Positions 56,902 to 63,467 of a stretch of DNA of 64,000 nucleotides are shown here, one piece after another. Source of the stretch: Squalus acanthias (taxonomy: Eukaryota). The stretch spans positions 49,726,001 through 49,790,000 of the forward strand of contig CM059432.1 of NCBI GenBank assembly GCA_030390025.1. Reading direction: 5' to 3'. A model generated the notes under the pieces. It did no database searches. It had not been told where the DNA came from and was given only the letters and a program-made list of their open reading frames with translations. The position numbers and the translations under genes were made by a program. Positions within the stretch are counted from its first letter, which is position 1. Each line of letters opens with the position of its first letter.

Positions 56902-58421
56902 AGCATAAGTAGTCACAAGGGTAGTCACTTGGGTGTTCTGTTGTGTTTAATTGTAAAATGCCATCCTTGACTGAATGTTATAAAATTAATTGATGGCAAT
57001 CTGTTGAAGTTGTGGGCTGTGTCATTTTGCAAATGGGACTTCCACATTGAGGGCTATGGGTGACTTGGAATTGTCAGTATGGTGGTCAGAGTGATAGGAA
57101 GCCACAGGTTCTTGTCCATTGTCGATGGTGTGGTAAGAAGGTGCGAGACAAATGTGATTGATTGGGCAGCCTAAGCAAATCTGGCCAAGATGAGTGCATC
57201 CCTTGCATCCCGGGCAGCAATGTTCTTGCGTGCTGCTGCCGCTGGTTGATGCGCCTCTGCAAGGTCTTCATTCTCGCTCTCCTACTCCTCCTCCTCCTCC
57301 ACATCCTCATCTGAGGAGGCTATGCGATGAGCCACTTCTACCTCAGGCAGCTGCAAGCCACGATGCTGTGCCATGTTGTGAAGTACACAGCAGACCACGA
57401 TGGTTCTGGAGATCCTGGCTGCTGAGTAGTGCAGGGCTCCACCTGATCTATCAAGGCATCTGAATCGTATCTTCAGCACGCCGATGGTTTGCTCGATAAT
57501 GGATCTGGTGGAAATGTGGCTGGAGTTGTAGCGCTCCTCAGCTTCATTGGATGGCCTGCTGAACGGCATCATTAGCCACATCTTCAGGGGATAGCCCTTG
57601 TCTCCAAGTAGCCATCCGCAAAGTTGGTTTGGTGGACTGAAGAGCGGAGGCACACTAGACTGGCGCAGGATGAACGAGTCATGGCAACTGCCAGGGTACT
57701 TGGCGCAAACATGCAAAATTTCCTTCTTGTGGTTACACACCAGCTGCACGTTGAGGGAATGGAAGCCCTTGTGGTTGACAAAAATACCTGGATTGTGATG
57801 GGGTGCCTTAAGGGCCACATGTGTGCAGTCTACGATGCCCTGCACCTTTGGAAAGCCTGCCATATTAGCAAATCCAATCGCACGCCCGGTTATACTTGCT
57901 TGATCCTTGGAGAAGTTGATGTAATTGTGCGCCTTGGCAAAGAGGGCATCAGTTACCTGTGTGATGCAAGTGTGTGCGGCCGCCTGGGAGTCGCCACTGA
58001 TGTCTGCTGTTGATCCCTGGAATGAGCCTGAAGCAAAAAAGTTGAGAGCGGTGGTGATTTTTACAGCCACTGGTAAGGGGTGTCCACCTGCTCCTCTGGG
58101 CTCCAGGTCTTGCTGCAGCATTGCGCAGATGTCACCCACTACCTCTCACGAAAGTCTGAGCCTCCTTTGGCACTGCTGCTCAGTCATGCTGAGGTAGCTC
58201 ATCCTCTGTTTGTAAACCCTGTTTTGGGGGTATCTCCTGTGGCGACGTCCTTCCCTGCGCTGGCGCCTTCTGGCCTGTGCAGCTTCAGGTGGGTGAGCAG
58301 CAGGTTGGCGCTCCTGTTGTTGCTGCTGCTGTTGGTGCTGCTGTTGTTCAGGGTTATGCTGCTGCCGCGGCTGGTCTTCCTCTGAATCTGATGTCCAGGA
58401 GGAAAGGAAATAAATGGTTCC

Positions 58422-58636
58422 TGTCATAAATCGCAAGTAACAACTCAGGAAGTACTACTGGGCGGCCAGCTGGGGCGCCGTCCAGGGAGTATAAATACTC
58501 AGGCATGGGCCCACCTTGGGCAGAGACAATCTGGAAACAGGAAGCTAGTGACTGCTAACCAGACCTCCATGTTTTGTTACAAGTTGATTAAAGCCTTGCT
58601 TTATGTTCAAGTGCGTAGTGAGTCTTTATTACGTCA
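58422..58636 (+). repeat. 5' LTR
   Basis: TGTCAT..ACGTCA. TATAAATA at about 58490 and ATTAAA at 58587-58592. Identical to the 3' LTR. Confidence 0.96.
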
Positions 58637-58736
58637 ATTTAATCAACTTGATATCGTCTCCACACTTTGGGTGATTCGGAACAACCAGCTGCAACTCGAA
58701 CCACAGAAGGGAACTAGGGCAAGAAACTGATCCATC

Positions 58737-60137
58737 ATGGAAAAACTCCTTAGACCCGCTCGTCTCGACCTGGACCCGAATGCACCTGCGGCAGCGAAGG
58801 TATGGAAGCATTGGTTTCGTACCTTTAGCAACTTTCTTGAAGAATGTGGGGCGGATGTCCCTAATAAGTTACGAATGCTTATCAACTACGTGTCTCCTCA
58901 TGTGTATGATTATATTGAGGACTGTATAGTCTATGACGCTGCTATCGAAATCTTACAGCAGCTATATGTCAAGTCCCCAAATGAAATATTTGCTCGACAC
59001 CTACTGGCCACAACTCGGCAGCAGCCTGGGGAATCACTCGATGAATTTCTCCAGAAACTTCGCAGGCTCAGCAAGGATTGTAACCTTAAAGCAGTTACAG
59101 CTGAACAGTATCAAGAGGAACTAATCCGCGATTCCTTTATCAATGGAATCGCGTCCCCTTTTATACGTCAGCGCCTGCTGGAAAATAAAACCCTCAATTT
59201 ACGGGCTGCTTATGACCAGGCGTGTTCCTTGGACTTGGCCAAGAAAAATGCAGACACTTATCTCCCACCACGTGCATGGGCGGCGGCTATCTCCTTTAAT
59301 GAGTCTTTCGGTAGGTCTCGGGCGGATGCCCCCACTGATGTTGACTCTACTCTAACGGACGACGACCCTACCCTAGAGGCCTTTGCTGATGACGACCCCG
59401 CCCTAGCAGCATCCTGGCAATCAGGAAGAAAGTGTTTCTTTTGTGGAGGGGCGTGCCATCACAGAAAATTTTGCCCGGCTCGTAATGTGACCTGCAATCA
59501 TTGCAGCAAGAAAGGACACTTTTCCAAGGTATGCCAGTCACGGGCCTTTGCTAACAAGAAAGGCCGCTCCTCTAAAGTATACCGGTCGAGAGCTCCTGTT
59601 AGCTTCACAGCTGCTATCTATGGAGCTGCTCCTCCCCCAAGAACTACTGTTAAGGCTACAGTTGCCGAAGGGAAAATTGACCCTCCTCCCATCACGGCTG
59701 TCTTTCCCCAAAGTTTGTCCCATGCAGCCACGAAGGTTTCAGTAAATGGGCACACTCTAAGCGCACTAATCGACTCCTGCAGCTCTGACAGCTTCATTAG
59801 TAAGCGGGCTGTCAACAGGTTAAAACTGCACATTTATCCCTCGGACAGGGAGATTGCAATGGCTCTGACGACTCTGACCACCAATTCTTCTGGCTTCTGT
59901 CTTGTCAACCTCATCCTCAACGGCCGCACGTATCTCTCCACCCGGCTCGGAGTACTCGCAAACTTATGCAGCGATGTACTTCTGGGACAGGACTTCCAGA
60001 AGCAGCACAAGAAGATCACTTTTGAGTTTGGATGGTCAAGGCCGGAGCTTACCATTTCTAAGGTGCCGTTTTGTGCACTCTCGGTGGCCTTACTCGGTGA
60101 ACCCTCCCTGTTTGCCAATCTTCCCCCCCCGCTGTAA
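58737..60137 (+). CDS. gag: Gypsy Gag-protease
   Basis: RQQPGESLDEF capsid motif, two zinc knuckles (CFFCGG..H..C and CNHCSKKGHFSKVC), and protease ALIDSCSSDSFI..LLGQDF. Confidence 0.92.
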   Translation: MEKLLRPARLDLDPNAPAAAKVWKHWFRTFSNFLEECGADVPNKLRMLINYVSPHVYDYIEDCIVYDAAIEILQQLYVKSPNEIFARHLLATTRQQPGESLDEFLQKLRRLSKDCNLKAVTAEQYQEELIRDSFINGIASPFIRQRLLENKTLNLRAAYDQACSLDLAKKNADTYLPPRAWAAAISFNESFGRSRADAPTDVDSTLTDDDPTLEAFADDDPALAASWQSGRKCFFCGGACHHRKFCPARNVTCNHCSKKGHFSKVCQSRAFANKKGRSSKVYRSRAPVSFTAAIYGAAPPPRTTVKATVAEGKIDPPPITAVFPQSLSHAATKVSVNGHTLSALIDSCSSDSFISKRAVNRLKLHIYPSDREIAMALTTLTTNSSGFCLVNLILNGRTYLSTRLGVLANLCSDVLLGQDFQKQHKKITFEFGWSRPELTISKVPFCALSVALLGEPSLFANLPPPL

Positions 60138-62679
60138 ACCCATAGCCACCAAATCGCGGCGCTTTAGCCAAGACGATCGAGCGTTTATTGAGGCGGAAAT
60201 CTCTCGCCTTTTAGTCGACGGTATTATCGAGCCATGTTCATCTCCCTGGCGGGCTCAGGTCGTCATCGTGAGGAATCCCTTAAAACAACATAAAAAACGT
60301 CTGTGTATCGATTATTCGCAGACTATTAATCAATATACCGATCTGGATGCCTACCCGCTGCCACGCATAGATGACATGGTCAACAACCTTGCCAAATACA
60401 AGGTATTCTTGACCTTCGATTTAAAAAGCGCGTACCATCAGGTGCCACTGCAAGACTCCGACAAGAAGTATACGGCCTTTGAGGCCAATGGTCGGCTTTT
60501 CCAGTTTCGCCGCCTTCCATTCGGGGTCACCAATGGGGTGGCCGTCTTCCAACGGGCCATGGATGGCCTAGTCCGGCAAGAGAACTTGACGGATACCTTT
60601 CCGTATTTAGACAATATCACTATTGCCGGCCATGATCAAAAGGAGCATGACGCCAATCTTCAGAGATTTTTTGACGTACTCCGCCGTCGCCACTTAACGT
60701 TAAACGAATCCAAATCGGTGAAGTCGGCGCCATCGGTGAACATTCTTGGCTACTGGGTGGGCAACGGTGTTATTAAACCGGACCCAGAGCGACTTCGTCC
60801 ACTTCAGGAGCTCCCTCCCCCGACGAACCTCGGCTCTCTTCGTCGGGCACTTGGCATGTTTGCTTATTACGCAAAATGGATACCACACTTCTCCGATAAA
60901 ATACAGCCCCTGCTCCATGCGAAGTCTTTTCCATTGGAAGCTACGGCTATTTCTGCCTTCAACCTCCTCAAACGACAGCTGGAGAAAGCCACGCTTCGCT
61001 CCATTGACGAAAATCTTCCTTTTGTGGTCGAATGCGATGCATCGGAGGTGGCGATCTCCGCTACCTTGAATCAAGGTGGCAGACCCGTGGCATTCCTATC
61101 CAGAACCTTGCAGGGTAGCGAGCTCCATTACCCCCCCGTCGAGAAGGAGGCTACGGCCATCATCGAGGCTGTACGCCAATGGGGTCATTTTCTTGCTCGG
61201 CGTCATTTTACGCTTATAACTGACCAGCGCTCTGTGGCCTTCATGTTGGATAACCGGAGGCGCACGAAAATCAAAAATAATAAAATTCAACTCTGGAGGA
61301 TGGAGCTGGCTGCCTTTGGATATACTATCTGTTACCGACCCGGCAAACAGAACGTGGCCCCAGATACCTTCACACGGGCATTTTGCTCCTCAATGTCAAC
61401 GTCGACTCTGGCGGATTTGCATATGGACTTATGCCATCCTGGTGTGACCCGCATGTTGCACTTTGTGCGCTCCAAAAATCTACCATTTTCAACCGAGGAC
61501 GTAAAGAAAACGTGCTCCTCCTGTAGGATTTGTGCAGAATTGAAACCACAATTCTTTCGCCCATCAGATGGCTTACTCATACATGCAATGCAGCCTATGC
61601 AGAGGCTCAGCATAGACTTTAAAGGGCCATTGCCTTCGTCGACAAGGAACACCTACCTACTTACGATGGTGGACGAGTATTCACGCTTTCCCTTCGCCTT
61701 CCCCTGCCCTAATATGCTTACCTCTACGGTAATTAAATGCCTCGATCAGGTCTTTTCCCTTTGCGGGACGGCCAATTTTATCCACACTGATCGGGGTCCC
61801 TCCTTTATGTCGAGTGAACTTAAAAGTTATCTCTCCCAACGGGGAATCGCCTCAAGTAGGACGACACCATATCACCCAATCGGTAACGGACAGGTTGAAC
61901 GATACAATGCCATCATCTGGAACGCTGTCCGTCTGGCACTAAGGTCACGCAACCTACCGGACCAGCAGTGGGAAACGGTGCTCCCCGACGTGTTACACTC
62001 TATCAGGTCTCTTCTCTCCACATCTACTAATGTCACGCCTCATGAGCGATTCTTCAAATTCCGGCGTCGCTCTACACATGGGACGTCTCTACCGTCATGG
62101 TTGGTGGCTCCAGGCCCGGTGCTACTCCGGAGGTTCGTCCGGTCTGCCAAAAACGACCCTCTCGTTGACGAGGTGGAGTTAACGGAGGTAAACCCCACTT
62201 ATGCGCACGTACGGTACCCTGATGGCCGGGAGACCACCGTCTCGCTCCGAGATCTGGCTCCCTGCCCAACCGGTCACACGGGCCCGAATGATGAAGGATC
62301 CCCCGACAATGATATCAACACTCCGCACCCCTATGAAAATGACGCCCCGCTTGGGACATCGGGGGATCTGCCGGCAACGCTACCGGATCAACTCAGGGAG
62401 CTGGACGCTCCCCGTAGGACGGCCACCCGAAACCAGGACGCCGGACAATCTCCAGCCACGACCCGGGATGAGGCCAGCTCAGCACCTGTGGGGACCCGCA
62501 CCCGGAGTCATGATATTCCCAGTCCTCCACAGGATGATCAAGATGACGCGGACTCTACTGACTTACCGGTACGGGCCAAGCGACCCAGGGACCAGGACAC
62601 GGTCCGGGGAGACGTGCCTTCCGGTCACAAGCAGAGAACTAAACGTCTACGGCTATTTTTGGTCCGTCTAGTCCGTTAA
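60130..62679 (+). CDS. pol: Gypsy Pol (RT-RNase H-integrase), +1 frame relative to gag-PR
   Basis: RLCIDY, DLKSAYHQV, LPFGV, YLDN. RNase H CDAS..EKEA..TDQ..PD. Integrase H..H..C..C, IDFKGP, TDRG, VERYN. Confidence 0.92.
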   Translation, partial: RCKPIATKSRRFSQDDRAFIEAEISRLLVDGIIEPCSSPWRAQVVIVRNPLKQHKKRLCIDYSQTINQYTDLDAYPLPRIDDMVNNLAKYKVFLTFDLKSAYHQVPLQDSDKKYTAFEANGRLFQFRRLPFGVTNGVAVFQRAMDGLVRQENLTDTFPYLDNITIAGHDQKEHDANLQRFFDVLRRRHLTLNESKSVKSAPSVNILGYWVGNGVIKPDPERLRPLQELPPPTNLGSLRRALGMFAYYAKWIPHFSDKIQPLLHAKSFPLEATAISAFNLLKRQLEKATLRSIDENLPFVVECDASEVAISATLNQGGRPVAFLSRTLQGSELHYPPVEKEATAIIEAVRQWGHFLARRHFTLITDQRSVAFMLDNRRRTKIKNNKIQLWRMELAAFGYTICYRPGKQNVAPDTFTRAFCSSMSTSTLADLHMDLCHPGVTRMLHFVRSKNLPFSTEDVKKTCSSCRICAELKPQFFRPSDGLLIHAMQPMQRLSIDFKGPLPSSTRNTYLLTMVDEYSRFPFAFPCPNMLTSTVIKCLDQVFSLCGTANFIHTDRGPSFMSSELKSYLSQRGIASSRTTPYHPIGNGQVERYNAIIWNAVRLALRSRNLPDQQWETVLPDVLHSIRSLLSTSTNVTPHERFFKFRRRSTHGTSLPSWLVAPGPVLLRRFVRSAKNDPLVDEVELTEVNPTYAHVRYPDGRETTVSLRDLAPCPTGHTGPNDEGSPDNDINTPHPYENDAPLGTSGDLPATLPDQLRELDAPRRTATRNQDAGQSPATTRDEASSAPVGTRTRSHDIPSPPQDDQDDADSTDLPVRAKRPRDQDTVRGDVPSGHKQRTKRLRLFLVRLVR

Positions 62680-62705: not shown

Positions 62706-62717
62706 AGGGAGGAAGAA
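62706..62717 (+). other. Polypurine tract
   Basis: AGGGAGGAAGAA directly abuts the 3' LTR TG. Confidence 0.9.
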
Positions 62718-62932
62718 TGTCATAAATCGCAAGTAACAACTCAGGAAGTACTACTGGGCGGCCAGCTGGGGCGCCGTCCAGGGAGTATAAATACTCAGGC
62801 ATGGGCCCACCTTGGGCAGAGACAATCTGGAAACAGGAAGCTAGTGACTGCTAACCAGACCTCCATGTTTTGTTACAAGTTGATTAAAGCCTTGCTTTAT
62901 GTTCAAGTGCGTAGTGAGTCTTTATTACGTCA
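62718..62932 (+). repeat. 3' LTR
   Basis: Identical to 58422-58636 and followed by the GTTCC TSD. Confidence 0.96.
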
Positions 62933-63467
62933 GTTCCCATGCTGCAGGTATATACCTCAGTTGAGGAAGTGCTCAGTCAAGGTGGGGAGAGGGTTTTCCC
63001 AGGAGGTCACAGTGGAGATGGATCTCAGCTTCAACACTTTCAAAATCAGTTGACCTGCAAAAAGTTCTCCAAGACCTGAGAAAAGAAAGTTCTGCCACCT
63101 GCAAATGATCATTGTGGAAAACTCCGTTTTTATGGTGGAGCTGCAGCTCTTAGTAAGCCAACCACTTGTGAACCCGACAGGATTAGCTGGCGTGTTCCAG
63201 GGGAGACGTGCAGCACACGGGAAGTGTGATAAACTCTGAAAGGCCTCTCAAAATGGGATTATAGAGGTACTTAAGTGGTGGTTAAGTGCCTTAAGGGCTC
63301 ATCCCGCCACTTGGAGGCGGAACCGAAACAGAGTCTGCAAGCCCGCCTTTGGGAAAGTTGCGCAGAGGCGGGTTGAAGGCGGGATCTGAGCTCGCCGCCA
63401 TTTTCTGCAACTTTCCTACCTGACCCACCTTCAAACCCGCCTCCTTGGGCCTGGCAAAATCCAGCCC

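Follow-up and report, generated by a model that had tools for sequence, protein, structure and literature searches.

Probable Tf1-like self-primed reverse transcription in a Gypsy retrotransposon lineage without a chromodomain

How does an LTR retrotransposon begin reverse transcription when no tRNA-type primer site follows its 5′ LTR? The question is raised by a 4.5-kb Gypsy LTR retrotransposon in the window, by which we mean the whole 64-kb stretch (64,000 nucleotides) of shark DNA that was analysed. In this element, the primer-site position pairs with the element's own LTR exactly where minus-strand DNA synthesis must begin, through a fold-back at the left end of the element. On the basis of the comparisons presented here, we propose that the element, which belongs to a Gypsy lineage lacking a chromodomain, probably primes its own reverse transcription in the manner of Tf1, and we regard self-priming of some kind as quite probable.

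Anatomy of the element and its fold-back

The features of a Ty3/Gypsy (Metaviridae) element are all present, including the protease (PR)-RT-RNase H-integrase domain order, TG..CA LTRs, a polypurine tract and a short target duplication. Specifically, the element comprises the following parts:

58417–58421 (left) and 62933–62937 (right), plus strand: target-site duplication GTTCC, the same five bases outside both LTRs
58422–58636, plus strand: 5′ LTR of 215 nt, TG..CA, identical to the 3′ LTR at 215/215 positions
58490–58497, plus strand: TATAAATA (TATA), 90 nt upstream of the primer arm, of uncertain role
58580–58592, plus strand: 5′ arm CAAGTTGATTAAA, the proposed self-primer, whose last six bases are ATTAAA (58587–58592)
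58595–58611, plus strand: small predicted hairpin beside the primer arm, with 58595–58598 paired to 58608–58611 in the RNA fold
58613–58634, plus strand: second predicted hairpin, 9 bp, just before the LTR end, in both the minimum-energy fold and the centroid
58638–58650, plus strand: 3′ arm TTTAATCAACTTG, the proposed primer-binding site, one base past the terminal CA of the LTR
58737–60137, plus strand: frame for gag, with two CCHC knuckles, and aspartic protease
59878–62679, plus strand: pol frame, with RT, RNase H and integrase (pol protein 60139–62679)
62706–62717, plus strand: polypurine tract AGGGAGGAAGAA, adjoining the 3′ LTR
62718–62932, plus strand: 3′ LTR, in which the 5′ arm is repeated at 62876–62888, with no 3′ arm after it

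A search of pol for a chromodomain gave no Chromo match at E ≤ 0.01. The second predicted hairpin (58613–58634) occupies the position at which Tf1 has its U5-IR stem-loop. To the left of the insertion, 58380–58421 belongs to a high-copy repeat, with a word depth of 519–2246 in runs X1 and X3 that exceeds the depth of the LTR, and this repeat is preceded by a CTG/CAG-rich stretch (58280–58380); the element seems to have landed inside another repeat.

The initial annotation of this DNA had claimed a perfect 13-nt complement between the post-LTR segment and the LTR, and the claim is borne out: the segment at 58638–58650 is the exact reverse complement of LTR positions 58580–58592 at 13 of 13 bases. 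The end of the 5′ LTR is followed by a single A and then by TTTAATCAACTTG, and the bases that flank the 13-bp duplex are unpaired on both sides. Consistent with the claimed absence of a tRNA-type primer site, there is no TGG within ~30 nt after the 5′ LTR, and both the TATA at 58490 and the ATTAAA signal are present as the annotation had described them. Allowing at most one mismatch, the 64-kb window contains three occurrences of the 13-mer against 0.13 expected, a count reached by 0 of 100 shuffles, and the three sites are the two LTRs on the plus strand and the post-LTR site on the minus strand. The predicted RNA fold of 58570–58665 retains the 13-bp stem (−20.4 kcal/mol, z −2.6) and contains two small hairpins within the 45-nt loop.

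A covariance model built from relatives of the element (described below) finds a single match in the window, located at the 5′ LTR-leader junction. The 3′ LTR, which is not followed by a 3′ arm, gives no match to the model at E ≤ 1. The fold-back is thus peculiar to the 5′ LTR-leader junction, which confirms the claimed restriction to the 5′ LTR. An Rfam search of 58300–58900 returned no family, save for one chance-level match at E 0.54.

The LTR-leader stretch has 1188 candidate copies in the 3.7-Gb host genome, and all 40 scored copies are 99–100% identical, indicating that the family is very young. The initial annotation had taken the identical LTRs as a sign of recent function, and the LTR identity, together with the near-identity of the 40 scored copies, makes it clear that the family was recently active. 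Both arms are kept in all 30 of the other genome copies examined, and in 31 of the 51 copies scored, a single open frame of 1315 aa spans the coding region. The window copy itself is broken despite its identical LTRs: the 1315-aa gag-pol frame is split into two overlapping frames, with gag-PR and pol out of frame through a one-base length difference within 59878–60137. Because this is a one-base length difference from the other copies, the gag-PR/pol overlap is not a programmed frameshift site. A search for other related families in the same genome, with a catshark homologue as the query, returned this family alone, at ~99% identity.

In Logan contigs from runs X1, X3 and X9, the depth is even across the LTR, and the LTR is 5–10 times more abundant than the internal sequence; in this respect, the contigs behave like DNA with solo LTRs, and they reveal no transcript starts or ends. 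At 58585, inside the primer arm, a T-to-C variant is found in a minority LTR contig of run X3 (depth 32 of 280). No matching change of the primer site is listed for this variant, and solo or 3′ LTRs may be its source.

Covariation of the two arms among relatives

Homologues of the pol protein number 1771 at E ≤ 1e-10, and the best 120 share 56–77% identity with it. Named homologues (57–77%) come from sea anemone, soft coral, prawn, copepod, mussel, tunicate, catshark and stingray, and a chromodomain (PF00385) is found in none of the best 120 of the 1771. Among the same best 120 of 1771, the closest named homologues (72–73%) are cnidarian, not vertebrate, a pattern suggestive of horizontal spread among marine animals. 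Metagenome contigs contributed 80 loci with relatives at 42–77% identity; no relatives were found in viral contigs.

In every relative for which both LTRs were found, the segment after the 5′ LTR complements that element's own LTR 36–68 nt upstream, with different letters, and the same fold-back geometry with changed letters recurs in metagenome relatives at 44–77% pol identity. The post-LTR segment tracks each element's own LTR and no conserved host RNA, as self-priming predicts. A systematic test for inverted repeats was performed on the 30 gag starts preceded by at least 150 nt of sequence. Of the 30, 24 have a perfect inverted repeat that is 9 nt or longer, and in 19 it reaches 11 nt or more; 23 of the 24 repeats lie within the 90 nt that precede gag. 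The six gag starts with no repeat of at least 9 nt belong to decayed or partial copies, two of them weakly recognised by the covariance model. Single-base shuffles of A+T-rich upstream regions can also produce stems of up to 13 somewhere within 330 nt, and we therefore place weight on position, geometry and covariation, not on stem length alone.

Eighteen distinct arm pairs were obtained. Cognate arms pair at 11.7 of 12 positions, compared with 6.2 of 12 for non-cognate arms, and the pairing drops sharply past position 13. The non-cognate combinations that reach 10 of 12 (45 of 306) reflect letters shared between related families. The arms were assembled into alignment A2, comprising 21 rows of 13 pairs (273 cells). 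In A2, 96.0% of the 273 cells are paired, compared with 74.6% in shuffles, of which 0 of 500 reach the observed value, although this percentage is partly given by construction, since the rows were selected for containing the repeat. Both sides have changed in 10 of the 13 pairs, with double changes in 52 cells against 12.8 expected, so that the covariation test in relatives proposed by the initial annotation proves strongly positive. When the partner columns are slid, pairing falls to 19–53%. Only two of the 273 cells are G-U, and in 19 of the 21 rows the 3′ arm comes directly after CA and one further base. A swap from ATTAAA to AATAAA in the arms of L041, the closest relative (77%), and of L043 is matched by a compensating change of the primer site.

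The covariance model derived from A2 gives 26 full-length plus-strand matches of at least 44 bits in 562 kb. Six of the 26 had no part in training, and among these L079 and L071 are new lineages; 3′ LTRs score far below the full matches. The pairing is lost in the old copies L077, L107 and L038, indicating that it is kept only while an element is active.

A further 22 loci have no recognisable gag start. Three of these have too little sequence upstream of pol, and the remaining 19 have either no placed repeat of at least 10 nt or doubtful ones only. Thirteen of the loci without a gag start were checked for LTRs, with none found in 11 and two candidate pairs that yielded nothing usable; these loci are old or truncated. 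The first base of the 4046-nt contig L048 immediately follows the 5′ arm, and the contig closes with the final bases of that arm, which places the arms at opposite ends; this layout may be an assembly break or a property of the molecule sequenced. At 2990–3070 of L041, the polypurine tract and the first LTR bases occur as a tandem duplicate just before the LTR.

Transcript start and the identity of the primer

The initial annotation had also claimed that the primer lies ~60 nt past the start site and is hence unlike that of Tf1. This claim is unsupported, its sole basis being TATAAATA at 58490. It corresponds to a form of self-priming from an internal primer, which we consider unlikely overall and which would be rather doubtful in the shark family even if self-priming is granted. 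Specifically, transcription would start ~30 nt after TATAAATA, near 58520, so that the arm lies ~60 nt inside R; RNase H would cut an internal RNA duplex to leave, much as with a tRNA, a ~73-nt primer with a long 5′ tail, and the duplex would also hide the 5′ copy of the poly(A) signal. The window family does have this canonical TATA, located 90 nt ahead of the arm, with no TATA at −30 or anywhere 22–33 nt before the arm, and the duplex length, 10–18 among relatives, is not obviously fixed by an RNA end. However, TATA[AT]A is present in only 1 of the 11 LTRs examined, that of the window element, and is missing from its closest relative L041. The long 5′ tail would, moreover, be copied into plus-strand strong-stop DNA and, under the standard scheme, would hinder the second transfer. 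If true, an internal primer would represent a mechanism unlike that of Tf1 in what is perhaps the most widespread Gypsy lineage of animals.

The shortest LTRs bear directly on the start site. The LTR of L079 (1266–1356) is 91 nt long, with TATAAATA at nt 11–18 and the duplex from nt 35, while that of L071 (2571–2694) is 124 nt long, with the duplex from nt 45 and a TATA run at −33 to −22 relative to it. A start ~60 nt upstream of the duplex would fall outside the LTR in both, only 34 and 44 nt being available before the duplex. Judging from this LTR geometry and from the TATA 22–33 nt upstream, the transcripts of L079 and L071 must begin, like that of Tf1, close to the first base of the duplex. 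A TATA at this distance from the duplex start is found in 5 of 20 relatives and is lacking in 15 of 20. The duplex usually opens at a pyrimidine-pyrimidine-A step, which resembles an initiator. If the shark family is self-primed, it is likely that its primer is 5′-terminal, as in Tf1. Both L079 and L071 are apparently complete, and each packs a TATA box, a primer arm and a hairpin into its short LTR, with a U3 of at most ~34–44 nt.

With a 5′-terminal primer, the genomic RNA would, by analogy with Tf1, have its 5′ end at the duplex's outer end or no more than a few bases away. The RNA would then fold back, and the element's RNase H would cut it after the last paired base, A58592, again as in Tf1. 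The freed 13-nt RNA, still annealed, would be extended through 58637, U5 and the rest of R to give a strong-stop DNA of ~45 nt, and this DNA would transfer to the 3′ R by way of the segment that separates the arm from the poly(A) site. Later in reverse transcription, the primer is itself copied by the plus strand. Here, a plus strand primed at 62706–62717 would copy the RNA primer, and the primer site would be rewritten from the primer in every cycle. Such rewriting would explain why old copies lose the pairing and why G-U pairs are nearly absent. The scarcity of G-U cells in A2 fits a primer site that would be copied from the primer, rather than an RNA stem that is merely selected.

The primer arm contains ATTAAA or AATAAA in 10 of the 21 A2 rows; the other 11 have no canonical hexamer in the arm and still keep the pairing. 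In L031, L033 and L096, the canonical hexamer is situated in the loop, not in the arm. The hexamer in the arm is probably used, though not obligatory. The 80 metagenome loci all lack a terminal poly(A) tail. If the RNA starts at the arm, the 5′ hexamer would lie within ~13 nt of the cap, inside the duplex, while the 3′ copy would be free; masking of the 5′ poly(A) signal by the duplex is possible, being compatible with a start at the arm but not needed for it. Furthermore, the hairpin abutting the arm recurs, with a perfect 5-nt partner in 6 of 20 relatives against 0.6 expected.

The stem might instead be a regulatory or packaging RNA structure that acts in 5′ poly(A) occlusion, dimerisation or translational control, with another primer in use. 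In HIV-1, the 5′ poly(A) signal is occluded by a hairpin, and both the hexamers in the arms of nearly half of the A2 rows and the second hairpin adjoining the arm in several lineages speak for a role of this kind. We nevertheless consider it quite improbable, because the 3′ arm is placed exactly at the primer-site position in nearly all rows, no other candidate primer site is seen between the LTR and gag, and gag begins 2–6 nt past the arm in some relatives. In addition, the pairing does not depend on a canonical hexamer in the arm, and so few G-U cells are unusual for a stem selected for folding alone. A third reading has a host tRNA, a tRNA half or another small RNA bind the site, the LTR complement being incidental. 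Elements of the Mag lineage in mosquitoes use tRNA-Leu or tRNA-Ser (PMC3286476), and our comparison with host tRNAs covered a thin sample, the Rfam tRNA search of the genome having given Lys-TTT and Cys-GCA genes only. Among the nine distinct tRNAs of these two isoacceptors, the best complement to the primer site is 6–8 nt, compared with 13 nt to the element's own LTR, and there is no TGG to receive a CCA end. The site also differs in its letters from one relative to another, in step with the LTR of the same element, a pattern for which a conserved host RNA cannot account. A tRNA primer is thus unlikely for this element, and we regard the reading as a whole, with small RNAs of any kind, as very improbable. 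Chance complementarity in A+T-rich sequence deserves almost no credence: shuffled A+T-rich upstream regions do sometimes yield stems of 9–13 within 330 nt, but the 13-mer far exceeds its expectation in the window, and position and geometry are identical in at least 18 distinct arm pairs. Chance is rejected by the A2 covariation statistics and by the covariance-model matches.

Relation to known retrotransposons

The Mag lineage (Mag, SURL and Jule; A, B and C clades) is described as the most widespread metazoan Gypsy lineage, including marine invertebrates and fishes (PMC6238403, PMC8556966, PMC8220671), and LTRs of ~174 nt are given for a Mag C training set (PMC3601003). The element studied here shares with this lineage a compact gag-pol, the lack of a chromodomain, short LTRs and a wide metazoan spread. 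From its short LTRs and metazoan spread, it is probably a member of the Mag lineage (PMC3601003, PMC6238403), perhaps of the SURL-like C clade, and the label 'Mag-like' given by the initial annotation is plausible. It differs from insect members in its primer site: the primer sites of 13 mosquito Mag families are reported to match tRNA-Leu, tRNA-Ser or tRNA-Arg, and the tRNA-Leu/tRNA-Ser primer site of those families is not present here (PMC3286476). A literature search on the Mag lineage and its C clade, with most subscription journals outside its coverage, found no report of self-priming. We thus seem to have clade-wide self-priming, well supported, in a lineage apparently without an earlier description of such priming.

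If confirmed, this design would have several consequences. Annotation pipelines that demand a tRNA primer site would miss or mis-score elements that are very common in animals. With LTRs as short as 91 nt, the clade would lend itself to dissection of the promoter, the primer, the poly(A) hexamer and U5. Near relatives (57–77% protein identity) occur in very distant animal phyla, and the lack of dependence on a host primer may be part of the explanation. The finding also bears on whether self-priming or hairpin priming in LTR elements is ancestral or has evolved repeatedly, a matter discussed in PMC3601003.

The closest parallel is provided by Tf1, whose RNA anneals to the primer site through its first 11 bases and is cut by RNase H between base 11 and base 12 (PMC7175516, PMC4600332). 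Like Tf1 and Tf2 of Schizosaccharomyces pombe and Tj1 of S. japonicus, the element here has no tRNA primer site, and the segment after its 5′ LTR complements a short LTR-derived stretch of its own RNA (PMC7175516, PMC4600332, PMC5341516); in all of them, there is extra RNA structure between the primer and the primer site. The differences concern dimensions and context. The duplex here is 13 bp (10–18 in relatives) rather than 11, the arm is only 24–70 nt from the primer site, and the LTRs are 91–231 nt. A chromodomain is lacking, the 3′ end of the primer is often a poly(A) hexamer, and the hosts are metazoan. Finally, the start site and the cleavage are predicted here.

In PMC6317226, PMC6934838 and PMC4600332, self-priming is predicted from complementarity between the LTR and the primer site for the Tf1/sushi group, for Tcn1-like chromoviruses and for the Copia elements TAR, Houba and Osr-1. 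The Tf1/sushi group spans vertebrates and fungi there, with sushi-ichi, Maggy, Skippy, Cft-1, Boty and Grasshopper as members (PMC6317226, PMC6934838, PMC4600332). Plant TAR is a Copia lineage, whereas the element described here has the Gypsy domain order. The Gypsy members among the predicted self-primers, in the Tf1/sushi group and the Tcn1-like elements, are chromoviruses, in contrast to the clade described here, which combines the Gypsy domain order with the lack of a chromodomain (0/120 of the best homologues). Self-priming is thus documented in the chromodomain-bearing Tf1/sushi elements, chiefly those of the Tf1 type in fission yeast, and predicted in a few others, and the design found here belongs to a separate, chromodomain-less Gypsy clade that spans cnidarians to sharks and conserves it down to 44% pol identity.
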